Assembly (NCBI GenBank): GCA_963848635.1
Contig: CAWKEA010000005.1
Location: forward strand, 257,526-321,525
DNA from: an uncultured bacterium
Lineage (GTDB): Bacteria > Patescibacteriota > Minisyncoccia > Phycocordibacterales > PALSA-1337
Length of the DNA: 64,000 bases
Reading direction: 5' to 3'
Shown here: positions 10,890 through 62,086 of the stretch, piece by piece
How positions within the stretch are numbered: position 1 is the first letter of the stretch
Layout: each line of letters begins with the position of its first letter
Program-made: the position numbers and the translations under genes
Notes under the pieces: model-generated
The model's database searches: none
Told to the model about the DNA's origin: nothing
The model's input: only the letters and a program-made list of their open reading frames with translations

Positions 10890-10903
10890 CTGTGTAGATA
10901 TGT

Positions 10904-12019: not shown

Positions 12020-13957
12020 TTAAAGGCTGGTGAGTGAAACTGATGGGCTCTGAACCTGGCTAGGCAATGTGTACAGAGACTGTGAAGTCGAAGTAGCACC
12101 CGATGCTGTTGCCACTGAGCTGTAATAGATACCTGTGAGAGCAGTGATTGCACCGCTGTCAGGAGCATTACCAGAGTTGTTCTCCAAGACATTGATCGTG
12201 AAGGTTCTGGCCTGATTGGACGGAACGTAGAACGAACCTGTTGCGGCTGTTCCAAGACCATTGTTGGTGTCGCCTGTGACAGTTGTCGCAGATGTGATAC
12301 CTGTTGCCTTTGACGATGAAGCTGCATTGCCTGTCAAATCAAAGATATACGTTGCGGCGAGCTTAGGCGTAGCCGAGATGTAGATCGGCGATGTCCCAGC
12401 TTGCACTGTGAAGGTGAACGGCCATTGAACTGCTACGTTACCATTACCATTCGGTACGGTTGTAGGAGTATAGCTAGGAACAGAAGGAGCGACTCCCGGA
12501 ACAACCGAGAAGGCTGCTGTGGTCGAGAATGTCGTGACTGCGCTGACTATCGTGCCGGCGTTGTTGACGGTCGGCGTGTTGTAGTTAGCGTCGACACCTA
12601 CGAAGTTAGAGGTAGATGCTGTGTTGAGCGAAGTGGTTGCAGTAACTCCTGTAACACCCTGGTTGACGTTAGCAACGATCTTCAAAGGAACAGTGACTCC
12701 GAGCGGAAGCGGTATGCTTACGCTGCTGTTGAATACAACTGTGTTTCCTGAGAGAGTTCCGTAGTAAGTCATACCATTAGCTTGGAGCTGAATGGTATTG
12801 AAGACAGAGGCTGGCGTATAGCTACCACCAGAGACTCCGACGTTCAAAGTCAAACCTTGCAGTGTTGCTGCATTGTTCTGAGCTTGGATGTCATAGATAG
12901 CCAACGGTACATTGTTCGTGACTGAACCTGATTGTGTCTGGATGATTTGCGTCTGAGGCGAAGAACCATCGATAGAAACAATAAGGTTTGCAGTCTGATT
13001 ACCGCTGTAAAGCACACTAGCGTAAGGCGAAGTCGTGTTCGGGTAAGGAAGGTTCAAGAGAGGAAGATTCTCTGTATCGACGACTCCTGTTCCATCTACT
13101 GAACGGACCGAAGCAGCGATGACGTCGAGATAGGCACCAGTGTTCTGGCTTATACCAGAAAGTGCTGTACCGGACAAGACGACATTGACTGTCTGACCCT
13201 TAGGAACGACGAAGTTGAGACCACTGATCGTCAAACGATAATCCTCGCTCGCTGTGAGCTCTGTAAAGCTTGAAGCGTTAAGAGGGATAGAAGGTACGAG
13301 AACCTGTCCTGTTGTCTGGTTGACGAGAGAGAAAGTTCCGAAGTACAACCATGGGCGGACATTGAAGTCGGCTGTTATTGTATTGACCTGCATATCAGAA
13401 GGACCAGCTTGGAGCTTGAAGCCTGCGATGTTCACAGTCTGACCTGTGTTGAATGTAGCACCGTTAGCAACTGATCCGCTGTTTGATATCGTCAATGTAC
13501 CTGATATTCCTGGAGTCGTTATACCTGTTGGAGCTGCGACAGTTCCTGTCGTCGTTACTGTCGTACCGACGATCGGTGTGCATGTGAAGCCTGCTGGGCA
13601 AGCCATCGAGACTGAGCCTGTGCCTGTGCCTGTGCCTGTAACAGCTGTGCCACCCTTATTCAAGGAAGCGACTGTCAAAGGACCGACGAAGCCAGTGTTA
13701 GGAATGCTGTTTGCAGCTTGGTAAGCCTTGACTGCAGATTGTGTCTGCGTGCCAAAGTAACCAGGTTGAGCGGCACCGGAAGAGATTGACGGGATGCTGT
13801 AACCATTAGCGATGAGGAAATTCTGGAGAGCCGTAACATCGGCGCCAGTAGATCCAACGCTCAAATAATTTGAGAACGTGTAGCTCGCAGCTGAAGCGAC
13901 GAGGGCAAAGCCCAAGACGATTGCAGCAGCTGAGGCTACGATTGATTTTGCTTTCAT
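12020..13957 (-). CDS. large secreted T/S/G-rich surface protein with N-terminal peptidoglycan-binding domain
   Basis: Signal peptide MKAKSIVASAAAIVLGFALVASAAS, then GADVTALQNFLIANGYSIPSISSGAAQPGYFGTQTQSAVKAYQ (PG-binding), followed by ~550 aa of T/S/G/N-rich repeats. Confidence 0.75.
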   Translation of the reverse strand: MKAKSIVASAAAIVLGFALVASAASYTFSNYLSVGSTGADVTALQNFLIANGYSIPSISSGAAQPGYFGTQTQSAVKAYQAANSIPNTGFVGPLTVASLNKGGTAVTGTGTGTGSVSMACPAGFTCTPIVGTTVTTTGTVAAPTGITTPGISGTLTISNSGSVANGATFNTGQTVNIAGFKLQAGPSDMQVNTITADFNVRPWLYFGTFSLVNQTTGQVLVPSIPLNASSFTELTASEDYRLTISGLNFVVPKGQTVNVVLSGTALSGISQNTGAYLDVIAASVRSVDGTGVVDTENLPLLNLPYPNTTSPYASVLYSGNQTANLIVSIDGSSPQTQIIQTQSGSVTNNVPLAIYDIQAQNNAATLQGLTLNVGVSGGSYTPASVFNTIQLQANGMTYYGTLSGNTVVFNSSVSIPLPLGVTVPLKIVANVNQGVTGVTATTSLNTASTSNFVGVDANYNTPTVNNAGTIVSAVTTFSTTAAFSVVPGVAPSVPSYTPTTVPNGNGNVAVQWPFTFTVQAGTSPIYISATPKLAATYIFDLTGNAASSSKATGITSATTVTGDTNNGLGTAATGSFYVPSNQARTFTINVLENNSGNAPDSGAITALTGIYYSSVATASGATSTSQSLYTLPSQVQSPSVSLTSL

Positions 13958-35197: not shown

Positions 35198-38100
35198 TTA
35201 TAAGACGAGGTCGAACTTGATGCCAGCTGTGGCATCAACTACTGCACCATTTACAACAATCTCAATATTCTTCAACAATACCGCCTTCACGAGCTCTTCC
35301 TTGTTCCTTTCGATGAAAGCCTCCCCCGCCTTGTCCGCGGCAAAGACCTTGAGGATCGGCCGATCCTGTATCGTGAGCTTTTGCTCCTTGCGCCTATCCT
35401 GGATGGCGCGCATGAGGTCGCGCAGTTCCCCTTCTTCTTTCAATTCAGGCGTTATGTTCAGATCAAGCTCAACTTCTGTGCTGATACTTCCATCAACAAC
35501 GACTTCCTTCACATTGACTTCTTCGTTGATCAAATCAAGCAAGTTTTTGTCTTCAATTTTGAACTTTGCATTTTGCACTTTCAATTTTGAGAGCGGCTGT
35601 CTGACGTTTATCTTTGCTTTTGAGCGAGCTTCGAGGCCAAGGGATGCTATGTCGCGGACAAGCTTCATATTCTCAATCAGATCTTTGTCGATTGCACTGA
35701 GAGCGGGCCAACTCTCGAGATGCACGCTTTCACGGCCGCCTTTCAGTCTCATGTAGACGTCTTCGGCAAGGAACGGCATGAACGGCGCTAGTAATTTTGA
35801 TACTTCAAGGAAAACGAGGCGCGTCGTTGCGAGAGCGGCCGACTTATCAGCTTCATCTTCCCCCTTGAACCTGTCTCGCGAGCGACGCAAATACCATGTA
35901 GAAAGGTCATCGATAAAATCTGCAAACGGCCTCGTCGCCTTGTCGAGCTCATATTTCTCCATTCCTTCAGTCACCTCCTTGTTCAATTCATTCAGGCGAG
36001 AGACGATCCATCGGTCAAGGATGTTTTTGCTTGCATCGCTTCGCGACGGAATGGTCTCGCTCACACGAAATTCTTCTGTTGAAGAATTTCTCCGTTCCGC
36101 GCCGTCGCGCTCCACGAGGTTCGCTCGACCCATTCCGGTCGCTTCGCCTGCATACAATTCATAGAACGTCACGACATTCAAAAGCCTGCCGATGTGCTTC
36201 TTGACCACTTCATCGACGCCCTTTTCTGAAAAACAGAATTCCTGGGCACGAACAGCAGGAGAAGACAAGAGATAGTAGCGCAAGGCATCGGCTCCATATT
36301 TCCGGACGACAGGCATGAGATCAGGGAAATTATTCTTTGATTTGGACATCTTTTGCCCGTCTTCAGCCAGAATGATGCCATTGACAACGACATTTTTATA
36401 TGGCGCTCGGCCAAAAAGCGCCGTACCGAGCACGATCATGCTATAGAACCATCCGCGCGTCTGATCGACACCTTCAGCAATGAAATCCGCAGGATATCCC
36501 CTACTTTTCCCCAACTTATCCCCAGTTATCTTTGCGAGGAATCCCCTCGCTGGATCGAATTCTTTTGTATCAAAAGGATAATGCGCCTCGCCGAACGGCA
36601 TCGAGCCTGATTCGAACCAGCAATCGAAGACTTCCTCGACGCGCTTTAGTTTTTCGCCGCCCGGCAGATGCAATTCGATATCATCGATGTATGGCCTGTG
36701 CAAATCGATCTCGAAATCGTCATTGTGCGGCAGTGGCACAAAATCGAGCTTTTCAGGAGCGGCGTTATCGAAATAATGGAGCTTGCGGTTTCTGAGATTG
36801 AGGGTCCCTTTGTCATCGAGCCCGAGCGAAACAGATGCCAGCATAAAAGCCGGCGCATCGTGAGTGACGATAAGGATGTTCTTGCCTACATACCTCCTCT
36901 CCATGTCATAGATAAAACTGCCGACCCGCTTTCGGATATCGGCGTAGTTCTCCCCCTTTGGAAGGCGAATAGAAAAGCGCTTCTCATGCGGGAAAGCTTC
37001 CATGAACTCATCGAATGGCTTGCCGTCATAGATGCCGGAATCCAATTCGTGAAGACGATCGTCGACGATGATATTTTTCTTCGGAAAATCCAGTCCAGCC
37101 GCAAGGATATCTGCAGTCTCTTTTGTGCGGACAAAAGGCGAGACAAAGATGATATCGATCTTCTTGTCGGCAAAGAATGCCGCCGCAGCCTTCACTTGCG
37201 CCTTTCCTTTCTCTGTCAGATGCTTTGGGTCGGTTGCTTTCGCGCTCATGACGCCGAGCGTGTTATTCTCCGCTTCGCCATGACGCATGATGTAGTAGGA
37301 GTTTTTGGCTTGCGAATGCTTCCTGAGGTCGTTGATCGAACCGAAGCAATGGATAGAGCCTGACTTTTCGCCGCGCCAGACCGGGATCGGAGCGCCCCAA
37401 AAACGCGAGCGGGAGATGGCCCAGTCGCGAGCTCCCGCGAGCCAGTTGCCGAAACGTCCTTCGCCGACTTCTGGCGGAGTCCAACTGACTTTGCCGTTCG
37501 CGGCAACGAGCTTGTCCTTGAAATCGCTGACGCGCACGAACCATGACGACGCGGCATAATTGAGGAGCGGCGTGTCGCAACGCCAACAATGCGGATACGA
37601 GTGCGTCATATTCTCCTTTGCAAAGAGAAGGCCTTTTTCTTGGAGCCACTGGATGACTTTTATATCCGTGCGCAAATGCGCGTCCTTGTCTTCCGGCGTA
37701 TCCTTTGGCTTTACTTTCAAACCTGAAAAATCAACGACTTCTTTTTTGAACGTGCCGTCGATATTGACGTGCTGAACGAACGGCAGATTTTCCTTTTGTC
37801 CGAGCGCATAGTCATCAGCGCCGAACGCAGGCGCGATATGGACGATGCCGGTGCCGTCGGTCGTCGTGACAAAATCGGCGGCATATACTTTCCAGCCGTT
37901 TTCGCGATTCTTGAGACTTGTGTCTTTTGAATAATAGTCAAAGAGGGGCACGTAGGATTTGCCGACGAGGTCGGAACCCTTCATCTCTGCGACGATTTCA
38001 TATGCTTCTTTTTTGAAAGTTGCCTCGAGCCTTTCTTTTGCACAAATATAAAAAACTTGATTCTCTCCGCCAACGACAACAGGAACACTTTTTCTACCCC

Positions 38101-39010
38101 CTTCGGTGGAGCGAAAAAGTTTCCTCTCGTCTTGTGTCGCGGCTGACGAAGCGTCCTGTGCCGGTGCATCATTTGAGCTTTCGATTTTTTGTTCAGGCCC
38201 TCCGACTTTCACTTTCACATAATCAATATCCTTGCCTACAGCCAATGCGACATTGCCGGGCAATGTCCACGGCGTCGTCGTCCATGCCAAGAGATACGTA
38301 CCTTCATCGTCCCCGTCTGCATCTTTGAGTTTTGAGTTTTGAGTTTTGAGCTCGAACTTCACATACACTGAAATGTCCTTTATGTCTTTATACCCCTGCG
38401 CGACCTCAAAATTCGATAGCGTCGTCTCGCAGTGCGGACAGATCTGCATCGGCTTGAAGCCCTCATAGACGAGCCCTTTTTCATGCAATTGCTTGAAAGC
38501 CCACCAGACGCTCTCGGTGTAGCTCGAGTTCATGGTCTCGTAATCGTTCTCCATGTCCGCCCAGCGGCCGAGTCGCGGGATGATCTCCTTCCAATCGTTG
38601 ACGTATCGGTGCACCGCTCTTCGAGCGGCAGAATTGAAATTTTTGATGCCAAAATCGATGATGTCTTTCTTGCTCTTGAGCCCGAGTTCCTTTTCAATCA
38701 GATTCTCGACCGGCAAGCCGTGACAATCCCAACCCCAGCGACGGCGCACGCTGTAGCCTTGCATCGTCTTGTAGCGAGGAACTGCGTCTTTTATCGAAGT
38801 CGGCAAAACGTGGCCAAAATGCGGCAATCCCGTAGCGAATGGCGGCCCGTCATAAAAGACGAACTTGCCGCGCGGAGCTTCCCTATCGACGCTTTTCTTA
38901 AAAATATCGTTCTCCTTCCAATATTTTAAAATGCGCTCTTCGCGCTCTTGTGCTGGCGTTTTTGCGACCACCTTGTCGCCAGTTTGGCCTGCATTCTGAT
39001 TTGTTGTCAT
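35198..39010 (-). CDS. ileS: isoleucyl-tRNA synthetase with a ~200-aa histidine-phosphatase (PGAM-like) domain inserted in place of the zinc-knuckle segment
   Basis: FYDGPPFATGLPHFGHVL (HIGH), GWDCHGLPVE, KMSKSKNN, and a C-terminal anticodon-binding domain. Residues ~565-765 read YYIMRHGEAENN...LTEKGKAQV...IIFVSPFVRTKETADIL...DDRLHELDSG...ILIVTHDA, matching histidine phosphatase branch-1 motifs. They lie between WRGEKSGSIHCFGSINDLRKHS and DLHRPYIDD...EVFDCWFESGSMP. Confidence 0.9.
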   Translation of the reverse strand: MTTNQNAGQTGDKVVAKTPAQEREERILKYWKENDIFKKSVDREAPRGKFVFYDGPPFATGLPHFGHVLPTSIKDAVPRYKTMQGYSVRRRWGWDCHGLPVENLIEKELGLKSKKDIIDFGIKNFNSAARRAVHRYVNDWKEIIPRLGRWADMENDYETMNSSYTESVWWAFKQLHEKGLVYEGFKPMQICPHCETTLSNFEVAQGYKDIKDISVYVKFELKTQNSKLKDADGDDEGTYLLAWTTTPWTLPGNVALAVGKDIDYVKVKVGGPEQKIESSNDAPAQDASSAATQDERKLFRSTEGGRKSVPVVVGGENQVFYICAKERLEATFKKEAYEIVAEMKGSDLVGKSYVPLFDYYSKDTSLKNRENGWKVYAADFVTTTDGTGIVHIAPAFGADDYALGQKENLPFVQHVNIDGTFKKEVVDFSGLKVKPKDTPEDKDAHLRTDIKVIQWLQEKGLLFAKENMTHSYPHCWRCDTPLLNYAASSWFVRVSDFKDKLVAANGKVSWTPPEVGEGRFGNWLAGARDWAISRSRFWGAPIPVWRGEKSGSIHCFGSINDLRKHSQAKNSYYIMRHGEAENNTLGVMSAKATDPKHLTEKGKAQVKAAAAFFADKKIDIIFVSPFVRTKETADILAAGLDFPKKNIIVDDRLHELDSGIYDGKPFDEFMEAFPHEKRFSIRLPKGENYADIRKRVGSFIYDMERRYVGKNILIVTHDAPAFMLASVSLGLDDKGTLNLRNRKLHYFDNAAPEKLDFVPLPHNDDFEIDLHRPYIDDIELHLPGGEKLKRVEEVFDCWFESGSMPFGEAHYPFDTKEFDPARGFLAKITGDKLGKSRGYPADFIAEGVDQTRGWFYSMIVLGTALFGRAPYKNVVVNGIILAEDGQKMSKSKNNFPDLMPVVRKYGADALRYYLLSSPAVRAQEFCFSEKGVDEVVKKHIGRLLNVVTFYELYAGEATGMGRANLVERDGAERRNSSTEEFRVSETIPSRSDASKNILDRWIVSRLNELNKEVTEGMEKYELDKATRPFADFIDDLSTWYLRRSRDRFKGEDEADKSAALATTRLVFLEVSKLLAPFMPFLAEDVYMRLKGGRESVHLESWPALSAIDKDLIENMKLVRDIASLGLEARSKAKINVRQPLSKLKVQNAKFKIEDKNLLDLINEEVNVKEVVVDGSISTEVELDLNITPELKEEGELRDLMRAIQDRRKEQKLTIQDRPILKVFAADKAGEAFIERNKEELVKAVLLKNIEIVVNGAVVDATAGIKFDLVL

Positions 39011-40920: not shown

Positions 40921-41190
40921 TTGACAAATTTACATTCTTTGCTATGCTCTCATATAGAGATGGCACCTCCAAAGGCTGTGGACGGGTCCGTAAGCACGGA
41001 TTGCCTTAGGCACCTCGTCCTCGGACGGGCTTGTCTGAAGACACTAACAGCAGGATCTGGACTGCAGAAGCTGCCTTCTCGATGGAGTTCAGCGGATTGC
41101 CCCGCCGCTTCATTTTGAAAAAGCTTCCAATAGATCATCCGTCCCGTCTTATTCTGCTAACCCTCTCGCCTCGAGCGAGGGGGCTTTTTA
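40921..41190 (+). ncRNA. candidate ~240-nt small RNA bounded by a sigma70-like promoter and a rho-independent terminator (identity unknown; weak SRP-RNA-like motif)
   Basis: TTGACA (40921-40926)-N16-TATGCT (40943-40948), then a transcript ending at CCCTCTCGC-CTCGA-GCGAGGGGG + TTTTTATT (41161-41190). The 5' GGACGGG can pair with the 3' CCGUCCCGUC. The internal AGCAGGAUCUGGACUGCAGAAGCUGCC loosely resembles SRP domain IV (CAGGUCAGGUCCGGAAGGAAGCAGCC). There is no protein-like ORF. Confidence 0.35.
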
Positions 41191-41304
41191 TTGGAAGCAC
41201 AAACCAACAAGCACGACGAACGAGGGGCTCTCACATCGCTCTGATGTCATGCCTGGTCAGGCGCGCAAAATTCCATCGATCCTTTCCGCGATCTTCTTGA
41301 AATC

Positions 41305-41427
41305 CTACTCTTTCCTTGCCGCGAGTACATCGCGGGATACGAAATTTTCGGAGGCGATGAGATTGATAGTGATTTTCTGACGCTTTTTTTCCGCCGATAT
41401 CAATTTTTGTATTTGGATGTCTTTCAT
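41305..41427 (-). pseudogene. glyA: serine hydroxymethyltransferase (glyA) 5' fragment, only first 40 codons
   Basis: MKDIQIQKLISAEKKRQKITINLIASENFVSRDVLAARKE* matches the SHMT N-terminus (..IELIASENYTSPRVMQA..) and then terminates. Confidence 0.6.
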
Positions 41428-41509: not shown

Positions 41510-41540
41510 AAAAAAAGCCCGCCACACTCGTGACGGGCCA
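41510..41540 (-). terminator. rho-independent terminator on minus strand (GCCCGCCACactcGTGaCGGGC + U7)
   Basis: Plus strand reads aaaaaaagcccgccacactcgtgacgggc. Confidence 0.65.
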
Positions 41541-41545
41541 GACTA

Positions 41546-41910
41546 GATAACAACAACCAACAATGCTACGTAGTGCCGTACGGAAATCGGCCGAGCTGGG
41601 TCTTGGCGACGCAGGGTTGTAAGTCCTCTCGTCACGGTAGCAGCCGGCGCTTTTGTTCGGAAGGAATCGATCAAGAAGTGTACCGCAATAGTATTCCCCA
41701 AAGGAGAACCTTTATCCGTCCACAACTCCGACCGAGAGCATTCCTGGGAGACAAATATGTCGCCCTTTTACCCAGTAAACGCCTGGGTTTCGCGACCAGG
41801 CTTATTAGGTCCATGCCTAATGCTTCATTCAACAACTGCTTTTGTACCTGAGCGGATCCCCTTTATCAGAGGTCCGTATGAGATAGTATACCTTTTGTTA
41901 TTTATGTCAA
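41546..41910 (-). ncRNA. candidate ~360-nt minus-strand structured RNA with its own promoter (TTGACA-N16-TACTAT, reverse complement of 41883-41910), ending at the 41510-41540 terminator (identity unresolved)
   Basis: No protein-like ORF (the track ORFs translate to nonsense). Many GC hairpins such as GCCUGG-UCGCGAAAC-CCAGGC and a GGGUAAAAGGGCG segment. Length fits RNase P RNA or tmRNA, but P4 and T-arm signatures were not found. Confidence 0.3.
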
Positions 41911-41991: not shown

Positions 41992-42663
41992 TCACAACAA
42001 CAATTGCCTGACATCGAGAAGCGTCGGCAGTTGCGGAGAGCCAATCTTTGGATCGGCTTGCTTTTGATTCACGAGGATCGTATTGATGCCGAGCTCTTGC
42101 GGGATGTAATGATCCGTCTTTGGCCTGTCTCCGATATATATAAATTCTGTCGCGGCAAGATCAGGATATTTTTTCAGCCACATCCTATAGGCATCGCTGT
42201 TTGATTTTGAAAAATGGTCGTCAGTGATGATGTGATTGAATATCTTTGGATCTATACCGAGATGCCCCAATTTTTCGCTCGTGATCTTCATATTGGATCC
42301 AGTGATAAGGTCGATGGCATAATATCTTTCTTTGATATCAAGAAGAAGCCGACGTATCTCTTCATTTGGCTTTAAAAATCTGCCGATATCAGCTTGCTCG
42401 AGCGCCTCTTGGACTGAATTCGTTGAATCGGGAATATCGAGCGCCTTAAGAGCCTGACTGCCGCTCAAACCGCTCCCCTCACGGTAGAGATCCTTGAATC
42501 TCTTTTCGGCCTCGTTCAAAGGAATATGCAGATGATCTGCTATCTTATGGTAAAGATAGACCTGTATAGCGCTATCGATCTCCGGCGACTTCGGATAAAG
42601 GGTCTGATCGAGATCAAAACCGATGACCTTGATATATTCTTTATAATTAAATATATCAGTCAT
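41992..42663 (-). CDS. HAD-superfamily hydrolase (phosphatase)
   Basis: Motif I VIGFDLDQTL (DxDxT), and motif IV ...FIYIGDRPKTD. Confidence 0.8.
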   Translation of the reverse strand: MTDIFNYKEYIKVIGFDLDQTLYPKSPEIDSAIQVYLYHKIADHLHIPLNEAEKRFKDLYREGSGLSGSQALKALDIPDSTNSVQEALEQADIGRFLKPNEEIRRLLLDIKERYYAIDLITGSNMKITSEKLGHLGIDPKIFNHIITDDHFSKSNSDAYRMWLKKYPDLAATEFIYIGDRPKTDHYIPQELGINTILVNQKQADPKIGSPQLPTLLDVRQLLL

Positions 42664-45079
42664 CGTTAAAATTTATGTAAAGAACGAATATATCGCCGAG
42701 CGATGCCTTGAGAGCTTGTGCATAGCGTGTCATGAGGTAATCGCACATCTCCTGATCACGTTTCTTGTTCTGGAGCGAGCGATTCATGAACACCGCTGTT
42801 GCATATACTTTTTTGCCATAGACGTTTGCCTGGAAATAGGCCAGCATATCATCCTGTGAATTCTTGTTCTTTGCGTAAAATTCAGTCAAGAGAGGATTAT
42901 TGTGCATTCCTCCTTTTGCTTTTAGATAGTCGATAGCTTTAGAGACCGTATCGACGCCTTCGTAGTTCTCAAGCCTGTCCAATATCTCGTGCCGAGGCCG
43001 TCGATCCACACGGCCGGCTTTAACGGTGAAATACGCTACGCCGCCTTTCAATGAAGGCCTCTTGATCCCGTCACCCAAGAGATACGGCCCCGAAACAGTG
43101 TCTAGGTCTCCAGGGGGCTTTGATGGCTCAGCCAGAATTTTTTTTGTGCGCTGTTCTTCTGTTATGAGCAGTATATTCGCGCGATTGGACAACATATACA
43201 TATCGCCGGCATGGAACCGGAGGCTCTGCCGTATTTTAGTCACATACGCATCATAAAGGCCGAAGATATTCTCTGGATACGCATTGACCGCGTTATGCGC
43301 GCGAGCGATATGGAATGAGTGTAATTTTTTTCCGAGAGTGAAATAGATATCGTGGGTCAAACAAGGATCATGAGTGTATTTGGTTTTCTTTGCCACAGGA
43401 TCGACATGAGAGGTCATGTCATTGATAGGATCGAAACGCTGGACAATGACCGCGCGAGACGGGTCATTCTTGAGGGTTTTTATGGCGTGCTCCAATTGGT
43501 CATAGCCGAAATACGATCGAGTCCTTTCGCCGTAGGTATACGTGCCGTCATGATCCTTTCGCAACAACTCTCTCTTATAGAGCTTGCGCATCGTCTCGGT
43601 ATCCGATGAGCTTTGCTTGTAGATAATCGGCAACGCGCGGAGCGACTTGTTGGTCTTGCGGTATATGGCGAGAACCGCGGCCGTGCGCGCAAGGCCCTTT
43701 TGCTTGTCGCCATGCTCATCAGTTATACCTTCGGTGTATATCTTTCGAAGGACTGTCTTGTGAACATCGAGAAAGCTATCGCCGTCAGCGACGACGAACG
43801 GCAGAGCTTTCTTATTGATCTTGAAAATGGTGCTGAAGTCCTGGATAAAAGAATAGCCGAGCTTGGCGGCGATGCCAGCGGCAGCGATCTGTGTGCCGAT
43901 GTCGAAACGATGGAGGATATCCATCTCGTAGTCTTGGAAACGATCCTCTCTAGCTATCCTCTCCGCGATGAGAATGGGGCTTTTGGAGACAAGCTCGAAG
44001 AATTCCTCGCATTCATCGAACGCCATGCAGAGGACGCTGACATTCTTCCCTTGCGTCCGAATCCGATAGTAGAATTCTTTGTCCACTTTCAACTGCATGT
44101 TTGACTCGAGCGGAACCTCTATCTTTCCTTGAACGCCGTCCGATTTGACGAATGACGGATATTTCAAGCCATTCGCGATTTCGACGGAGACGCGGCCGAC
44201 CTCCATGCCGAGAAGAATCTGCTCCTGCGGCGACAGCTTTTTTTTCTTCGAGCCGATAAGCTTCATAAGCGAGTAACCGAGAAGGAACGCGTTTCCCGAG
44301 CGTATGACATAGCTCTCATCACCGAGCCGTACGTCTGCACGTATCGCGCCCTTTTCCTGTCTGACAGAGAACGGGCATTTTATGGCATGTTCAATGCCCG
44401 TAAGGACGATTTTCGGCGGCTGAAGCTGTTGGAACTGCTTTGGATCAAGTTTGACTTCCCTCTTATCTCGCTTCGGCATCTTGGCGATAGCCTCGATGAG
44501 CTTGTTGAGCGAGTCATAGTAGATCTTGTCCTTCGTCGAAAGCGATTTAAGCAGGCTGTGGACTTCCGATGACACCATTGGCTTTAACCATTCCAGATAC
44601 CTTGAGATGATGGCCCTACTCTGTTTGTTCGTCGGCATGAAGATCGGCAAAACCATTATCTCCTCCCTGAATGCAGAAAGGATGTCATTGTTGAGGTTCG
44701 GATAATGCGGCGAAGCGGCGACGCCTCCTTTTATAAAGTTCCCTTTCTTGACTATATCGAGCCCTTGAAGGATAGCTTGCAATAGGTTCGTGCTCGGCGC
44801 GAAAGTGAGGCTCTCTTCTGAGAAGAGGATGAGGTACTTGAGCGTCGGATGTACCAGAGAATTGATGATCATCCTTTCGACGCCGTCGCGGCTGACGATG
44901 CATGGACCGAGAACGCAGACTTTGTCTCTATTCTCCTCGCTGATCTCGTTATAGACCTGGCCGGGCGCGGACGTATTCGTACAGATGGCGATCTGCGAAT
45001 GTTCCCCTTCTTTTGGGGTAAAGAGGATCGCTTCGACAAGGGGGAATTTGATGTTTGTCTTCATTTTTTGTTGGTCCAT
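42656..45079 (-). CDS. 807-aa protein with C-terminal thymidylate synthase / dNMP-hydroxymethylase fold fused to a ~500-aa uncharacterized N-terminal region
   Basis: C-terminal DQLEHAIKTLKNDPSRAVIVQRFDPINDM...HDPCLTHDIYFTLGKKLHSFHIARAHNAVNAYPENIFGLYDAYV...GDMYMLSNRANILL aligns to ThyA (DQI..V...LKNDP.SRRIIVSAWN...[42 protein letters not shown]...GD..W.GGD.H.Y), including the catalytic Pro-Cys. The N-terminal 500 aa have no motif I can name. Confidence 0.7.
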   Translation of the reverse strand: MDQQKMKTNIKFPLVEAILFTPKEGEHSQIAICTNTSAPGQVYNEISEENRDKVCVLGPCIVSRDGVERMIINSLVHPTLKYLILFSEESLTFAPSTNLLQAILQGLDIVKKGNFIKGGVAASPHYPNLNNDILSAFREEIMVLPIFMPTNKQSRAIISRYLEWLKPMVSSEVHSLLKSLSTKDKIYYDSLNKLIEAIAKMPKRDKREVKLDPKQFQQLQPPKIVLTGIEHAIKCPFSVRQEKGAIRADVRLGDESYVIRSGNAFLLGYSLMKLIGSKKKKLSPQEQILLGMEVGRVSVEIANGLKYPSFVKSDGVQGKIEVPLESNMQLKVDKEFYYRIRTQGKNVSVLCMAFDECEEFFELVSKSPILIAERIAREDRFQDYEMDILHRFDIGTQIAAAGIAAKLGYSFIQDFSTIFKINKKALPFVVADGDSFLDVHKTVLRKIYTEGITDEHGDKQKGLARTAAVLAIYRKTNKSLRALPIIYKQSSSDTETMRKLYKRELLRKDHDGTYTYGERTRSYFGYDQLEHAIKTLKNDPSRAVIVQRFDPINDMTSHVDPVAKKTKYTHDPCLTHDIYFTLGKKLHSFHIARAHNAVNAYPENIFGLYDAYVTKIRQSLRFHAGDMYMLSNRANILLITEEQRTKKILAEPSKPPGDLDTVSGPYLLGDGIKRPSLKGGVAYFTVKAGRVDRRPRHEILDRLENYEGVDTVSKAIDYLKAKGGMHNNPLLTEFYAKNKNSQDDMLAYFQANVYGKKVYATAVFMNRSLQNKKRDQEMCDYLMTRYAQALKASLGDIFVLYINFNDD

Positions 45080-45951
45080 TGAGCCGGAAGATAATCATCG
45101 ATGCGGACGATGCTCTCTGAATCGGGAATGTCATTATACGCAAAGCAATGGATCTCCATAGCCAAGCCTCTTTTAGCCGAGATCTCCGCGATGAATTGGC
45201 GGCAGACGCCGCAACAGTTGCATGCCTTGCCGACATGCTTCGATGACACGACGCCGAGATGCGTTATCTGGTCGTCGCCACTCATGAGAGCCAGCATGAT
45301 AGCCGACATCTCTGAATGCAGTCCGAGCCTGCGGTCGAACGAAGCATATTGCCCTGCAAAATATATATTGTTCTTTTTAGTGAGAACCGCTGTTCCATAT
45401 CCAGAGGCACCCTCATACATCGGAAAATTTCTCATAATCCCCTCTTTAGCGTATTTTTTCAGTGACGCCGAAAGGTTTTCCTTGGGGTCAAATTTAGCGA
45501 CAGGCAAAGAAACCTTTGCGGCCTTGATCTTCTCGAGCAAGGGAAAAACCGGATTATAGAACGGCATCGATTGGCATACATCATCGATGGAAAAAATATT
45601 TTTGCCTTCCACATCGTAGATCTCATACGACATCGGGGTTCTTGTGCGGAGAGAATGATCGATGAGAAATTTAAGCACGAGCGGCGAAACATCCCTGCCA
45701 GATTGCTCCTCTTCGACTACGCTTATGATCTTGTCAAGAGAATAATCCCGGGCCATCGCGGCCTCGACGAGCGCGCCCTGCTCGGAAGTTATCTTTATGA
45801 GCCCGGTATCCGCATCGATCTGGCCTGATGCATATCGCGCGCCGCTTCTCGAAAAAGCGATACTGCCCGATCTCAGATTTTCAGATACAGATAGTCCGAG
45901 AGCTGATTTGAGTTGTTGCAGTTCTTCTTTTTTCATTTGTATATTGCTCAA
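45061..45951 (-). CDS. cdd: two-domain cytidine/deoxycytidine deaminase (zinc motifs in the C-terminal half)
   Basis: HSEMSAIMLAL...GKACNCCGVCRQFI gives the H-x-E and C-x-x-C-R-Q-F cytidine deaminase signature. The 296-aa length is similar to dimeric E. coli Cdd. Confidence 0.7.
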   Translation of the reverse strand: MSNIQMKKEELQQLKSALGLSVSENLRSGSIAFSRSGARYASGQIDADTGLIKITSEQGALVEAAMARDYSLDKIISVVEEEQSGRDVSPLVLKFLIDHSLRTRTPMSYEIYDVEGKNIFSIDDVCQSMPFYNPVFPLLEKIKAAKVSLPVAKFDPKENLSASLKKYAKEGIMRNFPMYEGASGYGTAVLTKKNNIYFAGQYASFDRRLGLHSEMSAIMLALMSGDDQITHLGVVSSKHVGKACNCCGVCRQFIAEISAKRGLAMEIHCFAYNDIPDSESIVRIDDYLPAQWTNKK

Positions 45952-45967
45952 TATGAGCCGACTGTTG

Positions 45968-46879
45968 TTATATGTTGCTTCGGAGTCTGCTCACGTTGAG
46001 CTCGGCTTTCGTCCAATCATAATGCAGCGTCTTTTTCAGAAAATCATTGAATAGATGTATCTTGTCCCGTTCCAGCCTCGGGTACATCTTTTCCGCTTGC
46101 TTGCTGGAAAGGCGGATGGTCGGATAGAACGGCACAGGAAAGGCATAATAAGGGACGAGGTCATATTTGCCGGGCTTGACGACAATGACATTGATCGGCT
46201 CATTGAGCTTTTCGAGCGAGTAATCTATGCGATGGCTGCCGTCGCAGACGATATAGAAGTCGACCTTGCCGCTGAATCTTGATCCGTAGTTTAAAAGATG
46301 GGAATTATGATGCAAGGCGTCCATCTCGCGCACGGCGCTCACCTCATCTATATAGAACGATTCGAGATACCTTTCCGATATCTTGTGCATAGTATCCTTT
46401 GAATCCTTCACGTACAGGTCACCGAATTTTTTGAGAAGCTTCTTGAAATCTATATAGCCATTCTCCATATCATATGTATGCATCTCTATGATGGGCGGCA
46501 ACATATGGAAATCTCCCCTTCCTTCCCAATTATATTGGACAGCGCCCTTCAATTTGTTGACCCGCATATGATTCTTCTTGAGAAAAGAATCCACAGTCTC
46601 GATGATTTCGAGCTGGTTCAAATAAATAGTCGGCTGAGGTGAAAAGAGAGGATGCTTTCCTTTGCCGCTAATCTCGATTGAAGGAGACTCGCCGAGTATG
46701 CGAGAAGGATAAACTTTAGCCAAGGAAAACGTCGCGTATTTATACGGCAATGCGGCGCATCCTTTCTTGTTATAGATACCTCTGAACTCGATCTTCTTGA
46801 GGCGTTCGGCCAATTCTTCGAGATCCATGGTGTCGATAAGGGTGATTTTTTCCTTTATGATCGCGTTCATAACTCTCAT
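45968..46879 (-). CDS. hypothetical protein with ParB/Srx-like motif (IVCDGSHRIDYS)
   Basis: Start placed at MRVMNAIIKEK (RBS AAAGAGG upstream). The upstream extension in the ORF track overlaps dut and is not protein-like. The DGSHR motif resembles the ParB/sulfiredoxin nucleotide-binding fold. Confidence 0.5.
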   Translation of the reverse strand: MRVMNAIIKEKITLIDTMDLEELAERLKKIEFRGIYNKKGCAALPYKYATFSLAKVYPSRILGESPSIEISGKGKHPLFSPQPTIYLNQLEIIETVDSFLKKNHMRVNKLKGAVQYNWEGRGDFHMLPPIIEMHTYDMENGYIDFKKLLKKFGDLYVKDSKDTMHKISERYLESFYIDEVSAVREMDALHHNSHLLNYGSRFSGKVDFYIVCDGSHRIDYSLEKLNEPINVIVVKPGKYDLVPYYAFPVPFYPTIRLSSKQAEKMYPRLERDKIHLFNDFLKKTLHYDWTKAELNVSRLRSNI

Positions 46880-47010
46880 CTTACCTCTTTGGGAAAAGAA
46901 AACAAAACTGACACAACAATGATTATATTGTTTAGTTTTTAGGCGATAAGGCAAAAAACCGAGCATTACCGCACAAATTCCATTTGCTGTATAAAAAGCG
47001 TATGATACAG

Positions 47011-47433
47011 TCACCTCCCCGAGCTTCCGAGCCATTTGTCCCCTCTCGGCGAATCCGAGAGCGCATCGACTTCTTCGAATTCGGCTTCCTCGACTCTTTG
47101 GATCAAAAGTTGTGCGACTTTGTCGCCTTTTTCGAACTTGAATTCTTTATCAGAAAGGTTCATGACGCCCACGTGATATTCTCCACGATAACACGAATCG
47201 ATGACGCCTCCGAATTGCTTCAGCCCGTGCTTATGTGACAGGCCGCTCTTGTCCCAAACAAGAGCAACATACCCTGGAGGCAGTTCAATAGCAATGCCGA
47301 GCGGGATCGACTTGCGCTCGCCGGGGGCTAGCACGACCGTCTCGATGGTGTAGAGATCCATACCGGCATCTCCAGGATGCGCATATTTCGGGATGATCGC
47401 ATCTGGATGAAGCCTCTTTATCTTTAGTTTCAT
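47011..47433 (-). CDS. dut: dUTP diphosphatase
   Basis: AIIPKYAHPGDAGMDLY (motif 1-2), ...IPLGIAIELPPGYVALVWDKSGLS...GVIDSCYRGEYHVGVMN (motif 3-4 with the RGE). Confidence 0.9.
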   Translation of the reverse strand: MKLKIKRLHPDAIIPKYAHPGDAGMDLYTIETVVLAPGERKSIPLGIAIELPPGYVALVWDKSGLSHKHGLKQFGGVIDSCYRGEYHVGVMNLSDKEFKFEKGDKVAQLLIQRVEEAEFEEVDALSDSPRGDKWLGSSGR

Positions 47434-50461: not shown

Positions 50462-51334
50462 TTAGTTTAGAGACTTCAGTAGCTTTTGACTTTCTGGGCT
50501 CATTATAGCGCAATCGACAAGATTCTCAAAGAGAGCGAGAACCGTCATAGGACCGACGCCGCCGGGAACCGGCGTGATAGCGCCCTTTTCTCCCAAGACT
50601 GCCGTCACCTTTTCAAAATCGACGTCCCCGACAAGTTTGCGGCGGCCAATCTCTTTATTCAGACTATCACCGCACACCTCATTGATTCCCACATCGATCA
50701 CCACCTGGCCAGCCTTGACATGCTCCGCGCCGACAAGGCCCGGCTTGCCCACTGCGGATATGATGACGTCGGCAGAGCGCGTTTCTTTCACGAGGTCTGT
50801 GGTCTTGGAATGACAGACCGTGACAAAAGCTCCGCGAGCACGACAAAGGACGGCGATCGGCGTCCCGACGAGCGCGGAGCGGCCGATGACGCAGACTTTT
50901 TTCCCCATGAGAGGGATCTCGTAAAAATCGAGAAGCTCGCCGATGCCGCGAGCAGTCGCCGGATACAAGACTGCGTCAGCATCCTTTGATGGAACGACAG
51001 TGTCGAGTATGATCTGCTCGTCCATATCTTTTGGCAAAGGCAATTGCACGATTATCCCCGCAATCCCCTTGTCCTGATTCAATGCCTTTATCTCATCGAT
51101 GATTTCTTTTTGGCCTATGCTTTCTCCGAAGGGAACGAGCTTTACAAGCACGCCTATCTCTGAGGCGAACCTTTTCTTTGCATTGACATACGCTGTCGAA
51201 TCGGCCCTATCGCCGACTTGGATTATGGCTAAAACTAGAGACACGCCTCGCTCGTCTCGCAAGGATCTTATTTTCGCGACGAGCGATTTCTTTAATTCGT
51301 CCCGCGCGATCTTACCTGAGAGAATGATCGACAT
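50462..51334 (-). CDS. folD: bifunctional methylenetetrahydrofolate dehydrogenase/cyclohydrolase
   Basis: GIIVQLPLP, VIGRSALVGTPIAVLL-type Rossmann, PVPGGVGPMT. Confidence 0.92.
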   Translation of the reverse strand: MSIILSGKIARDELKKSLVAKIRSLRDERGVSLVLAIIQVGDRADSTAYVNAKKRFASEIGVLVKLVPFGESIGQKEIIDEIKALNQDKGIAGIIVQLPLPKDMDEQIILDTVVPSKDADAVLYPATARGIGELLDFYEIPLMGKKVCVIGRSALVGTPIAVLCRARGAFVTVCHSKTTDLVKETRSADVIISAVGKPGLVGAEHVKAGQVVIDVGINEVCGDSLNKEIGRRKLVGDVDFEKVTAVLGEKGAITPVPGGVGPMTVLALFENLVDCAIMSPESQKLLKSLN

Positions 51335-59767: not shown

Positions 59768-62086
59768 ATGACACCAAAAAAGAAGCCCTTGCTTGCAAAA
59801 CCAGCCGTAAAAAATATCCAAAAGAGAGACGGGACGATCGTTCCCTTCGATAAGAACAAGATCACATCGGCCGTCGAGAAGGCGATGAGAGCTGCGGGCG
59901 AAGGCAGTCATGGCGATGCGGAAAAAGTCGCCGGAAACGTCATGAAGGAGATCGCGAAGATCACTTCAAAGTATAGAAATTTCGTTCCAGCGGTCGAAGG
60001 CGTGCAGGATATCGTAGAAAAACAGCTCATTATGAGCGAACACGCGAAAACGGCCAAGCATTACATCCTTTACCGCGACGAGCGGTCTCGCATCAGGTCA
60101 AAAGGCTTGCAGGTCCCGCCAAAAGTCAGGAAATTGGCCGAGGATAGCAAGAATTATTTCCGCAATCCGCTCGGAGAGTTCGTCTACTATCGCACCTATT
60201 CAAAATGGATCGATAGCGAAGGCCGCCGTGAGACATGGATTGAGACAGTCGACCGTTATATATCGTTCATGAAAGAAAATCTCGGCGACAAATTGAGCGA
60301 AAAAGAGTACGCCGAAGTCCGCGAAGGGATACTGAAACAAGAAGCCATGCCTTCGATGAGGCTCCTGCAGTTTGCTGGAAAAGCGACGGCTTCGACGAAT
60401 GTCTGCGCGTACAATTGTTCGTTCACCGCTCCGGAAAAATTCCAGGACTTGGCCGAGATCATGTACATATCTATGTGCGGAGCCGGCGTCGGTTTCGCGG
60501 TCGAAAGCCGGAACGTGCAAAAATTCCCGCAGATCAAAACGCAGACGGGCAAAAAATTGCCGACTCATGTCATACCCGACAGCAAAGAAGGCTGGGCCGA
60601 CTCGCTTGTCATCGGCATGGAGGCCTGGGCCGAAGGCAGAGACATCGAGTTCGATTTCTCGCTGTTGCGCCCATCCGGCGCGCGCTTGAAGACGATGGGC
60701 GGAAAATCTTCGGGCCCAGACCCATTACGCCGTCTGCTTTCTTTCACCAGAAAAGTCATGCTATCCCGTCAGGGCAAACGCATGCGCAATATCGATCTTC
60801 ACGATATCATCTGCACGATCGCTGATTGCGTCGTAGCAGGAGGCGTGAGGCGGAGCGCCATGATATCTTTGTCCGATTTGGACGATGTAGATATCCGCGA
60901 TGCAAAAATGGGCGCTTTTTATACCACTGAACCACAAAGAATGTTGGCAAACAACTCGGCAGTATACATACAAAAGCCCTCAAACACTGAATTCATGGAA
61001 GAATGGATGGCCCTCATGAAATCTGGTTCGGGTGAGCGAGGCATATTCAACCGAGGTTCACTCGCAAATACTCTGCCTGAAAGGCGCGTCAAATTGCTCA
61101 GAGAAAAGCATCCTGATTATTTCGACGCGGATCAAAAGACCATTATCGGCTACATGGGCACGAATCCATGTGGCGAGATCATCCTCCAACCAAAGCAGTT
61201 CTGCAATCTTTCCGAAGTGGTGGCCCGTTCAGAAGACACTGTGGCGACGCTCACACGCAAGATCCGTCTGGCAACCATCATCGGTACATATCAATCGAGC
61301 TTGGTCCATTTCCCTTACCTTTCAAAGGAATGGAAGGAGCACTGCGAAGAAGAGCGCCTCCTCGGCGTCTCGATCACCGGTCAATGGGATTCGCCCGTAG
61401 TGCGTTCCCCGAAGATCTTGTCGAAATTGCGCGAAGAGGCTCTCAAGGTGAACCGCGAATATGCCAAAAAATTCGGCATAAACGCCTCTGCTTGCATCAC
61501 CTGCGTCAAGCCTTCTGGCACGCTCTCCCAAACCGTCGACTGTTCGTCAGGCATGCATCCGCGACATGCTCCATACTATATACGCCGCATCCGCATATCA
61601 GCTACCGATTCCCTCTTTAAAATGCTTCGTGATCAGGGCGTGCCATATCATCCAGAAGTCGGCCAGAGCGCGGAGAATGCGACGACGTATGTCCTCGAAT
61701 TCCCCATCGCCTCGCCTCCAGGCTCCATCTATCGCGACAGCATCACGGCGCTCGACCAGCTCGAGCATTGGAAGATCGTAAAGAACAACTATACGGATCA
61801 CAATCCGTCGGTGACCGTCTCTGTCAGCGAGAATGAATGGATCGCAGTCGCTGATTGGATCTACAGGAATTGGGATATCGCCGGCGGACTCTCGTTCCTT
61901 CCTCGCGACAACCATGTCTACCAGCTCGCTCCCTATGAAGCGATCGACGAAAAGACCTACCTCGAGCTCTCTCGCAGGCTCGCGCACATCGACTATTCAA
62001 AGATCATGACGTACGAAAAGACCGATGAGATCGATGTAAAAAAAGAATTAGCTTGCGTCGGTAATGTGTGCGAGATAGCGCTATAA
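59768..62086 (+). CDS. ribonucleotide reductase with N-terminal ATP-cone (class II/NrdJ-like active site NPCGEI)
   Basis: ATP-cone VKNIQKRDGTIVPFDKNKITSAVEKAM. Catalytic TNPCGEIILQP. C-terminal redox cysteines ...ELACVGNVCEIAL. Confidence 0.75.
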   Translation: MTPKKKPLLAKPAVKNIQKRDGTIVPFDKNKITSAVEKAMRAAGEGSHGDAEKVAGNVMKEIAKITSKYRNFVPAVEGVQDIVEKQLIMSEHAKTAKHYILYRDERSRIRSKGLQVPPKVRKLAEDSKNYFRNPLGEFVYYRTYSKWIDSEGRRETWIETVDRYISFMKENLGDKLSEKEYAEVREGILKQEAMPSMRLLQFAGKATASTNVCAYNCSFTAPEKFQDLAEIMYISMCGAGVGFAVESRNVQKFPQIKTQTGKKLPTHVIPDSKEGWADSLVIGMEAWAEGRDIEFDFSLLRPSGARLKTMGGKSSGPDPLRRLLSFTRKVMLSRQGKRMRNIDLHDIICTIADCVVAGGVRRSAMISLSDLDDVDIRDAKMGAFYTTEPQRMLANNSAVYIQKPSNTEFMEEWMALMKSGSGERGIFNRGSLANTLPERRVKLLREKHPDYFDADQKTIIGYMGTNPCGEIILQPKQFCNLSEVVARSEDTVATLTRKIRLATIIGTYQSSLVHFPYLSKEWKEHCEEERLLGVSITGQWDSPVVRSPKILSKLREEALKVNREYAKKFGINASACITCVKPSGTLSQTVDCSSGMHPRHAPYYIRRIRISATDSLFKMLRDQGVPYHPEVGQSAENATTYVLEFPIASPPGSIYRDSITALDQLEHWKIVKNNYTDHNPSVTVSVSENEWIAVADWIYRNWDIAGGLSFLPRDNHVYQLAPYEAIDEKTYLELSRRLAHIDYSKIMTYEKTDEIDVKKELACVGNVCEIAL

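Follow-up and report, generated by a model that had tools for sequence, protein, structure and literature searches.

A thymidylate synthase-like fusion protein and its conserved gene partners in bacteria of the candidate phyla radiation and DPANN archaea

The cassette, its setting and its conservation

The window analysed here is a stretch of 64,000 nucleotides (positions 257,526 to 321,525 of contig CAWKEA010000005.1) from an uncultured bacterium of the candidate phyla radiation (CPR); it corresponds to about 12% of a 516-kb contig that bears an identical 807-residue protein. That protein, a relative of thymidylate synthase (ThyA), is the third product of a four-gene minus-strand cassette, in which it is preceded by a protein of the ParB/sulfiredoxin fold (ParB-CE) and a cytidine deaminase-like (CDA-like) protein, and followed by a HAD-superfamily phosphatase; dut lies upstream (Table 1). 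A sequence-only reading of the region, made by a model, had listed five minus-strand open reading frames (ORFs), and all five are present in the ORF listing where it placed them, with the family calls (dut, ParB-like, CDA-like, ThyA-related and HAD) upheld by profile searches. The cassette is distinctive in the ~800-residue form of the ThyA relative, in its remodelled active site and in the obligate ParB-CE and HAD partners. Gene content, conservation, domain architecture and the catalytic residues kept or changed were observed directly.

Table 1. Genes of the cassette, domains of the 807-residue protein, and folD, in window coordinates
Feature	Position	Strand	Size or residues	Remarks
dut, trimeric dUTPase	47011-47433	minus	140 aa	PF00692 and NF001862 above cut-off
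ParB-CE protein	45968-46879	minus	303 aa	PF24392; longest ORF form 45968-47035
CDA-like protein, two-domain	45061-45951	minus	296 aa	from TTG; alternative ATG 45936
ThyA-superfamily protein, whole ORF	42656-45079	minus	807 aa	
MtrA-like Rossmann-type domain without the cobalt-ligand pair	44480-45022	minus	residues ~20-200	
Beta/helical insert, then DUF4346-like domain	43805-44467	minus	residues ~205-425	PterinBD-DUF4346 matches of relatives and AlphaFold2 model
ThyA-fold catalytic domain	43115-43798	minus	residues ~428-655	Cys573 codon at 43361-43363
C-terminal domain	42659-43114	minus	residues 656-807	weak hhalign match
HAD-superfamily phosphatase	41992-42663	minus	223 aa	last gene of the cassette; PF13419
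folD, methylenetetrahydrofolate dehydrogenase/cyclohydrolase	50462-51334	minus		3 kb upstream; PF02882 5e-52, PF00763 1e-28

The genes had all been described as overlapping, by 4-25 nt. This holds for the last three, the CDA-like and 807-residue ORFs sharing 4 nt (ATGA) or 19 nt, depending on the start of the latter, and the 807-residue and HAD ORFs sharing 8 nt (ATGACTGA); the NCBI copy of the large protein (P0001, 802 residues) uses the ATGA start. The other two junctions are spacers. ParB-CE and CDA-like genes are 16 nt apart, and the 25-nt overlap of dut with ParB-CE arises from taking the first ATG of the ORF. The ATG at 46879, which has AAAGAGGTAAG before it, gives the 303-residue protein, a size already found in the earlier note, and all 120 ParB-like homologues listed are of 282-319 residues; on both grounds we place the start at 46879, so that dut and ParB-CE are separated by 131 nt. 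No minus-strand terminator-like site was found outside coding sequence from dut to the HAD gene. A strong one lies ~450 nt downstream of the HAD gene, and a terminator-like hairpin (47472-47448) sits between dut and the upstream rplK.

How constant is this arrangement among other genomes? A scan that took one genome per species gave 53 loci, and partners were counted by jackhmmer on the six-frame ORFs of those with enough flank. The CPR hosts are Nomura-, Zambryski-, Kaiser-, Vogel- and Sungiibacteria and Parcubacteria, and the DPANN hosts, at 42-44% identity, are Woesearchaeota, Nanoarchaeota and Iainarchaeum. Upstream, ParB-like and CDA-like genes are found in 43 of 44 loci; downstream, the HAD gene is found in 49 of 50. 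The complete set of four occurs at 39 of the 41 fully flanked loci, including nine of the ten archaeal ones, and the order is nearly always ParB, CDA, the ~800-residue protein, HAD. Neighbours are also found fused, CDA to the ~800-residue protein in one case (P0244, 1111 residues) and the latter to HAD in another (P0247, 981 residues), which suggests that the products form a complex. The conserved order and the fusions bear out the proposal that these genes are a unit for pyrimidine deoxynucleotide metabolism. Its inclusion of dut as a fixed operon member does not survive: dut is a facultative neighbour, within 6 kb at 19 of 41 loci and usually divergent, as it is in the closest relative (L067). 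The serine hydroxymethyltransferase (SHMT) gene glyA is within 6 kb at 12 of 41 loci, folD is near the cassette in four (three besides the window), and at one locus (L029) a Pfam-confirmed thymidylate kinase gene lies between glyA and dut. An exhaustive search of representatives gave only about eight full-length clusters at 50% identity. Some cassette contigs are labelled 'uncultured Gammaproteobacteria' or 'Methanosarcinales' (L024, L046, L043), and many others 'Saccharibacteria'; the labels seem to be errors of binning or taxonomy, made on CPR or DPANN DNA.

The setting is cellular. The window carries a bacterial 16S rRNA gene, ileS, argS, rplK, nusG, folD, recA, ftsK, metG and a B12-type ribonucleotide reductase, and homologues of the 807-residue protein carry labels such as Paceibacterota, Zambryski-, Kaiser- and Sungbacteria. 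The cassette belongs to the chromosome of a CPR bacterium, as a housekeeping locus passed on by vertical descent, and is not part of a phage region. A phage or defence island is ruled out by the 16S rRNA and housekeeping genes; a PADLOC search of the window gave no matches, and its only PHROG matches are to ThyA and dUTPase. Does the window encode a second, ordinary enzyme? Phmmer searches with approximate E. coli queries found no other ThyA, FolA or Tmk in the 64 kb, about 12% of the 516-kb contig; the RHRx7S motif of ThyX occurs there in no real ORF, and no second thyA, thyX, folA or tmk appeared when some 35 of the longer ORFs of the window were scanned with Pfam.

The 807-residue protein and its active site

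An AlphaFold2 model of the protein, built from 30 homologues, has a mean pLDDT of 83.9 and a pTM of 0.74; the residue roles given below rest on alignments rather than on model coordinates. The first ~500 residues, which had been said to match nothing nameable, appear to resolve into an MtrA-like domain and a DUF4346-like domain. The suggestion that the N-terminal half might be a folate-cycle enzyme such as dihydrofolate reductase is rejected on the same assignment. PterinBD-DUF4346 (PF14251) is matched at the equivalent place in four relatives (P0244, P0268, P0272 and P0274). The window protein itself has no direct match; P0244 scores 26.7 bits against a cut-off of 29.6, the distant P0272 and P0274 score above it, and the AlphaFold2 secondary structure of the region is confident. 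Internal similarity between the MtrA-like and DUF4346-like domains was sought and was not convincing.

MtrA is the corrinoid subunit of methyl-tetrahydromethanopterin:coenzyme M methyltransferase (PDB 5laa, 5l8x), in which His84 is the cobalt ligand and Glu54 its hydrogen-bond partner (PMC4915002). In the 807-residue family, by contrast, these positions align with Phe93 and Arg64, each of them unchanged in 50 of 51 sequences, the other having a gap there. Because the pair is replaced by invariant Phe and Arg, we judge His-on corrinoid binding, and with it corrinoid-dependent methyl transfer in that form, to be unlikely. The window does encode a class II (B12-dependent) ribonucleotide reductase with an ATP-cone (59768-62086, plus), so the organism uses cobalamin even though its MtrA-like domain lacks the cobalt ligands.

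The last ~270 residues had been aligned to ThyA. The relationship stands, including the catalytic Pro572-Cys573, with different limits: the catalytic domain is residues ~428-655, and residues 656-807 are a separate domain. The catalytic domain has the ThyA alpha/beta fold, and its closest sequence family is the archaeal 'methanogen-type' ThyA, TIGR03283 (1.2e-17); it is under the family cut-offs of canonical ThyA (EC 2.1.1.45), with 64.1 bits against 174.55 for TIGR03283 and 15.2 against 24.3 for PF00303. The helix and strand order of the C-terminal domain in the model is that of the second half of the ThyA catalytic domain, with the Cys replaced ('DDML'); hhalign relates the two over 138 columns (E 0.018, with an estimated probability of only 2.5%). 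We infer that it is a degenerate copy of the ThyA second half, which within the one chain would take the place of the dimer's other subunit.

Which of the residues that define ThyA remain? The catalytic domain was aligned by MAFFT to an E. coli ThyA sequence whose numbering was checked at R21, E58, C146, R166, N177 and H207, with bridging archaeal sequences added; the register was confirmed by a subfamily profile that matches the ThyAs of the PDB at 3.7e-5 (HMMER). Invariance was counted over 51 sequences, 40 bacterial and 11 archaeal. Kept in all 51 are Tyr94 (Y516), the nucleophile Cys146 (C573, after Pro572), Arg166 (R593) and Asn177 (N604), and the Tyr94-Gly...Arg99 motif is kept as well. 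Of these, Asn177 as against Asp sets uracil as against cytosine specificity (Lee et al., PMC13326640). For the other residues we use the roles of canonical ThyA, in which Asp169 activates methylenetetrahydrofolate (methylene-THF), Arg126'/Arg127' and Ser167 bind the 5'-phosphate, and His207 and Tyr209 bind the 3'-OH. Asp169 is here an invariant Asn596, His207 is Asn635, Tyr209 is Leu637 and Ser167 is Ala594; equally invariant are Cys168 to His, Gln165 to Ala, Gly173 to Ala and His147 to Leu. Arg127 has become Ala543 (Pro or Thr in archaea), and the position of Arg126 is Arg or Lys in most sequences, not all. Leu143 is replaced by His (Lys in four archaea), followed by an invariant Asp571, and four new invariant arginines (R465, R519, R521 and R548) have appeared. 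Twelve residues of E. coli ThyA are listed as lying within 6 Å of dUMP C5; eight of these are changed, invariantly across bacteria and archaea. The kept and replaced residues together describe an enzyme that has the nucleophile and uracil reader of ThyA but not the residues by which canonical ThyA holds pterin, 5'-phosphate and 3'-OH. Beyond this, the protein is longer than canonical ThyA by ~430 residues at its N-terminus and by ~150 at its C-terminus, and differs from it in having obligate ParB-CE and HAD partners.

The fusion had been thought undescribed. Full-text literature searches found no paper on the fusion, the cassette or the ParB-CE family, so in that sense the claim holds; the fusion of MtrA and ThyA as such, on the other hand, is widespread. 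The same search that gave distant relatives of 811-877 residues (MtrA, DUF4346, ThyA and a C-terminal extension) gave many MtrA-ThyA(-DUF4346) proteins of 390-520 residues and methanogen-type ThyAs of ~200 residues. The archaeal fusions (for example P0306, P0280 and P0300 from a Thermoprotei archaeon) likewise have a short ThyA core to which MtrA-like and DUF4346 domains are joined. They differ in keeping the Arg-Arg pair, Asp169 and His207/Tyr209, and some of them (P0280 and P0300) keep the cobalt-ligand His of MtrA, by a reading by eye; neither ParB-CE nor HAD accompanies the one locus examined, and the 807-residue protein is ~300 residues longer, with its pseudo-ThyA C-terminal domain. Archaeal thymidylate synthases have not been characterised experimentally (Filee et al.). 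What is new in the ThyA superfamily is the architecture, the active-site signature and the obligate partners.

Partner proteins, related modules and neighbouring sequence

The ParB/Srx-type call, made from the motif IVCDGSHR, is borne out by PF24392, 'ParB CE' (25.1 bits, cut-off 23). The protein has the ParB/sulfiredoxin (Srx) fold with a beta-rich N-terminal part and the motifs LPPIIE, CDGSHR and PYYAFP; invariant across the family are a Gln, LPPxxE, DGxHR, PYYA and a Lys. These resemble the nucleotide-binding motifs of Srx and ParB. Canonical partition ParB has a GERRxR CTP motif, as against DGSHR here, and ParB-CE has no match to PF02195 or to a helix-turn-helix (HTH) domain and no adjoining parA. 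The absence of HTH and dimerisation domains suggests an NTP-using enzyme and not a DNA clamp. The model (pLDDT 79) matches chains of the ATP-using proteins Srx, SerK and SbnI. ParB-CE shares with Srx and the free serine kinases SerK and SbnI a DGxHR/GCHR-type phosphate-binding motif, and lacks HTH and dimerisation domains as they do; it differs in having no detectable sequence similarity to them outside the motifs, an extra N-terminal beta domain and, in the CPR subfamily, an insert of ~70 residues. Known enzymes of the fold phosphorylate small substrates using ATP or ADP (PMC12704722), and for that reason ParB-CE is predicted to be an NTP-using phosphotransferase or NTPase. A sulfiredoxin-type role in Cys repair was considered and set aside: the position of the catalytic Cys of sulfiredoxin is Ser, Leu or Met in ParB-CE, and the neighbouring Cys212 is Asn in other subfamilies. 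A text search of a 2025 survey of ParB CTPases, which covers PF02195 only, found no mention of PF24392, thymidylate, deaminase or Patescibacteria.

The remaining partners are more familiar. Dut scores 104 bits with PF00692 (6.6e-30, cut-off 22) and 137 with NF001862 (3.5e-40, cut-off 103). The HAD protein matches PF13419 (6e-12, 46.4 bits, cut-off 23.8) and has 'FDLDQT' as its DxDxT motif I; by profile scores that are under cut-off (TIGR01993 pyrimidine 5'-nucleotidase, 2.6e-15; TIGR02253, 2.8e-16) it appears nearest to subfamilies of the pyrimidine 5'-nucleotidase type. The CDA-like protein is marginally under the cut-off of 25 for PF00383 (2.7e-5, 24.4 bits), matches NCBIfam cytidine deaminase models at 1e-7 to 1e-5, and aligns with B. 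subtilis CDA (1ux1) at 3e-4 across HxE and PCGxCRQ. Its zinc motifs (HSE...CNCCGVCRQ) lie only in the C-terminal half, as first read, and the N-terminal half is without them.

Does the partnership extend beyond the ~800-residue family? ParB-CE genes accompany ThyA-like variants without His207/Tyr209. One goes with an 877-residue relative (L006). In a Magnetococcales genome (L061) the order is ThyA-DUF4346 (D169N), HAD, ParB-CE and dCTP deaminase; in an archaeon (L064) it is ThyA-DUF4346 (D169N), HAD, ParB-CE, NrdR and class II ribonucleotide reductase (RNR); and in L072 (5273-8678) it is HAD, ParB-CE, a dCMP-deaminase type and ThyA-DUF4346 (D169N). By contrast, the classical MtrA-ThyA of a Thermoprotei archaeon (L066), which retains the Arg-Arg pair, Asp169 and His/Tyr, stands without ParB-CE or HAD beside it. 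It follows that the ThyA-like protein, HAD and ParB-CE are a constant core, found in four unrelated lineages with different gene orders, and that a cytosine deaminase of one of three types (CDA, dCTP deaminase, dCMP-deaminase type) is the usual fourth member.

ParB-CE genes are also found apart from this core. Five phage-like contigs (L062, L068-L071) carry ParB-CE genes for ~200 residues among small phage ORFs, in L062 near a terminase and a portal gene, with no ThyA-like gene within 6 kb; the family therefore has a ThyA-independent viral life as well. Another contig (L063, 3690-5432) has ParB-CE followed by a ThyA-like ORF of 267 residues (TIGR03283, 4e-15) with an inserted CxxC...CxxC segment resembling a zinc ribbon.

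Next to the cassette in the window is a 5' remnant of glyA, of 40 codons (41305-41427, minus), whose translation includes 'INLIASENFVS' and ends '...INLIASENFVSRDVLAARKE*'. By blastn it matches the 5' end of the intact glyA that adjoins the cassette at three other loci (L011, L018 and L023), and an intact SHMT gene adjoins it in L003 and other loci. The cassette is inverted in the window genome, by a rearrangement that left the glyA stub. A Kaiserbacteria SHMT query found no further glyA in the 64 kb, and SHMT may have been lost or be encoded elsewhere. The gene for FolD, 3 kb upstream of the cassette, is a context gene that can supply or interconvert a one-carbon donor. A conserved ORF of 183 residues without a Pfam match lies convergently between the HAD gene and rplK in Sung- and Kaiserbacteria (L001, 9154-9705; L003, 9108-9659) and is absent from the window.

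A 1.08-kb ORF-free gap was searched for RNA genes, with no Rfam match at E <= 1. On the minus strand, ~365 nt without an ORF (~41510-41885) follow a sigma-70-like promoter (TTGACA-16-TACTAT, 41910-41883) and end at a strong terminator (41539-41516, a 10-bp stem and T7). This is a candidate structured RNA with a fold z-score of -1.9; Rfam gave nothing for it at E <= 1. Another candidate small RNA, likewise without an Rfam match, is ~235 nt of plus strand without an ORF (~40950-41195), between a TG-extended promoter-like site (40921-40948) and a terminator (41161-41183 and a T run), antisense to the region downstream of the glyA stub. Farther off, the isoleucyl-tRNA synthetase (35198-39010, minus, 1270 residues) has a complete His_Phos_1 domain inserted at residues 573-737 (Pfam, 1.1e-33), which splits its catalytic domain and is unusual for an aminoacyl-tRNA synthetase. 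Three large adjoining ORFs (9114-13957, minus; 591, 325 and 645 residues), each with PG_binding_1, form a paralogous cell-wall-binding cluster.

What does the cassette make?

The substrate, the one-carbon donor, the product and the roles of ParB-CE and HAD are inferred from what precedes. The reading that we favour, though we would wager on it no more readily than against it, is that the cassette is a non-canonical route from a deoxyuridine nucleotide to dTMP in its host organisms. The CDA-like enzyme would deaminate cytosine (deoxy)nucleosides and Dut would hydrolyse dUTP, together giving a deoxyuridine compound. Cys573 of the 807-residue enzyme would attack C6 of the uracil ring, with Asn604 as the uracil reader, and a one-carbon unit from 5,10-methylene-THF, supplied through the linked SHMT and FolD, would be placed on C5. 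The ParB/Srx-fold protein, as a phosphotransferase, and HAD, as a phosphatase, would between them determine how far the substrate or the product is phosphorylated. Since the holders of the phosphate, 3'-OH and pterin are replaced, and MtrA-like and DUF4346-like domains and a pseudo-subunit have been gained, the nucleotide or the cofactor, or both, are probably bound in a manner unlike that of ThyA. The housekeeping setting, the linkage to dut, glyA, folD, tmk and NrdR-RNR, the kept Cys, Arg and Asn, and the minimal genomes make dTMP the most likely product. The glyA and folD linkage favours methylene-THF as the one-carbon source and argues against a folate-free hydroxylase. Among CPR genomes folA is found in only 55%, and glyA and folD in ~80% (PMC11974145), so that the fate of the oxidised folate is a live question for this enzyme.

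Several observations weigh against dTMP as the product. Asp169 is replaced by Asn in every flavin-dependent 5-hydroxy-dCMP synthase tested (Lee et al., PMC13326640), where it is the reported diagnostic, and the same replacement is invariant in the 807-residue family. According to the title of PDB entry 1bjg, a D221(169)N mutant of ThyA does not promote opening of the cofactor's imidazolidine ring. Residue 143 correlates with a methyl as against a hydroxymethyl product (Lee et al., PMC13326640), and the polar His or Lys found here is a trait that goes with non-methyl products. Comparison of structures puts a dCMP hydroxylase and a CMP hydroxymethylase first, and no ThyA; the top Foldseek match of the model is 9iqu, 'phage HY126 dCMP hydroxylase AfhB', and the group includes T4 dCMP hydroxymethylase, the CMP hydroxymethylase MilA and the 5-hydroxy-dCMP synthases AfhB and RB69 gp48 (PDB 9iqc/9iqu). 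Canonical synthesis of dTMP calls for no kinase-like or phosphatase partner, and the pair look futile. One of the related modules, that of L072, is on a viral or virus-like contig of 287 kb (IMG/VR UViG_3300004151_000006). The trio is also present in the Magnetococcales genome, of a large-genome lineage that is expected to have a canonical ThyA or ThyX as well. The Asn at 169, the polar 143, the lost sugar-phosphate holders, the hydroxylase and hydroxymethylase matches, the obligate partners and the viral copy argue, at the least, that the chemistry is not that of canonical ThyA.

Might the product then be a modified base? An earlier suggestion was that the genes resemble those by which phages make modified pyrimidines; the resemblance is real, and is strengthened by the active-site changes and the similar module on the viral contig. 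The enzyme might turn dUMP into 5-hydroxymethyl-dUMP, with methylene-THF and water, or into 5-hydroxy-dUMP, with a flavin; ParB-CE might be the kinase for the modified nucleotide, HAD might clear competing dTMP or dUMP, and the deaminase and dUTPase might feed dUMP, so that part or all of the thymine of the host DNA would be replaced. We regard this as unlikely, though a serious contender. The Bacillus phages SPO1 and phi-e, with 5-hydroxymethyluracil DNA, reportedly have a dUMP hydroxymethylase, a dCMP deaminase, a dUTPase/dTTPase, a dTMP nucleotidase and a kinase for hydroxymethyl-dUMP. On that enzymology every conserved component of the cassette has its counterpart, the activities mapping one-to-one on the ThyA-like protein, the deaminase, Dut, HAD and ParB-CE, and this keeps the modified-base pathway in play. 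The differences are that the kinase would have the ParB/Srx fold rather than a P-loop, and that the host is a cell. Beside the reported signatures of non-methyl products (D169N and a polar 143, PMC13326640), the loss of His207/Tyr209 is invariant, the trio and a deaminase are together on the IMG/VR contig, and ParB-CE occurs alone in phage-like contigs. The Magnetococcales trio fits too, that lineage presumably having ordinary dTMP synthesis.

Other features of the family speak against a modified-base pathway. Phage ThyA homologues with non-methyl products share with it the polar residue at 143, but theirs is Asp or Glu and not His or Lys, and where they have the cytosine-specific Asp the 807-residue family keeps Asn177, so that the signature of the known hydroxylases and hydroxymethylases is absent. 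They differ also in that the 807-residue protein is multidomain, cellular, housekeeping and linked to SHMT and FolD, a linkage that points to folate use and speaks against a folate-independent hydroxylase. The extended L029 locus has a canonical Tmk, and in these genomes of ~0.5 Mb, which must make dTTP by some route, the cassette lies in synteny with ribosomal and housekeeping genes. An O2-dependent step would be odd for lineages that are mostly anaerobic. A cassette contig of 606 kb has been assembled (L022), and if it is from long reads, heavy DNA modification is less likely.

A bolder proposal, which we hold to be improbable, is that in many CPR and DPANN organisms the cassette makes hydroxymethyl- or hydroxy-dUMP, a ParB/Srx-fold kinase activates it and HAD removes dTMP; in a milder form, the 807-residue protein would be a thymidylate synthase of a third, mechanistically new type, dependent on ParB-CE and HAD.

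Another possibility is thymidine synthesis at the nucleoside level, with HAD dephosphorylating dUMP or dCMP, CDA converting dC to dU, the 807-residue enzyme methylating the free nucleoside (dU to dT), and ParB-CE, as an analogue of thymidine kinase, phosphorylating dT to dTMP. This would give HAD and ParB-CE an obligatory place, would explain a CDA of nucleoside type (its PCGxCRQ-like motif), and would fit the replacement of all the equivalents of Arg127, Ser167, His207 and Tyr209 and the complex suggested by the fusions. It would, however, spend extra ATP without obvious benefit; Arg166, the mostly conserved Arg or Lys at 126 and the new Arg548, Arg519 and Arg521 suggest an anionic (phosphate) ligand, and the deaminases of L061 and L072 act on dCTP or dCMP and not on nucleosides. 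We consider it very unlikely. An ordinary salvage operon, in which the 807-residue protein is a canonical methylene-THF/dUMP ThyA with extra domains and the ParB-like, CDA and HAD genes are independent and nearby by chance or co-regulation, has in its favour the ThyA fold with its catalytic Cys, Arg and Asn, the genomic company of dut, glyA, folD and tmk that is also ThyA-like, and the name 'thymidylate synthase' that annotation pipelines, JGI's among them, give to family members, and it is made just as doubtful by the invariant changes at eight of the twelve residues near dUMP C5, the scores under the Pfam and NCBIfam ThyA cut-offs, and a ParB-CE/HAD partnership that recurs in four unrelated lineages and in fusions and is absent at the classical L066.

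What would follow for these organisms? Synthesis of dTMP is essential, and we know of only two types of enzyme for it, ThyA and ThyX. Much of the CPR and DPANN radiations appears to depend on a ThyA relative whose cofactor- and sugar-phosphate-binding residues are systematically replaced, and whose gene stays tied to those of a ParB/sulfiredoxin-fold protein and a phosphatase; for neither of these two is a role in thymidylate synthesis known. Metabolic reconstructions that score these genomes as 'thyA present' should be read with caution, as the enzyme they count does not match ThyA at its defining residues. The ParB-CE family (PF24392) would gain its first functional context. If the modified-deoxyuridylate reading were true, there would be cellular lineages in whose genomes thymine is replaced in part or in full. 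On either reading the biology would be new, and in organisms that do not grow by themselves: a new route to dTMP, possibly one without dihydrofolate reductase, or a cellular modified-thymine pathway.

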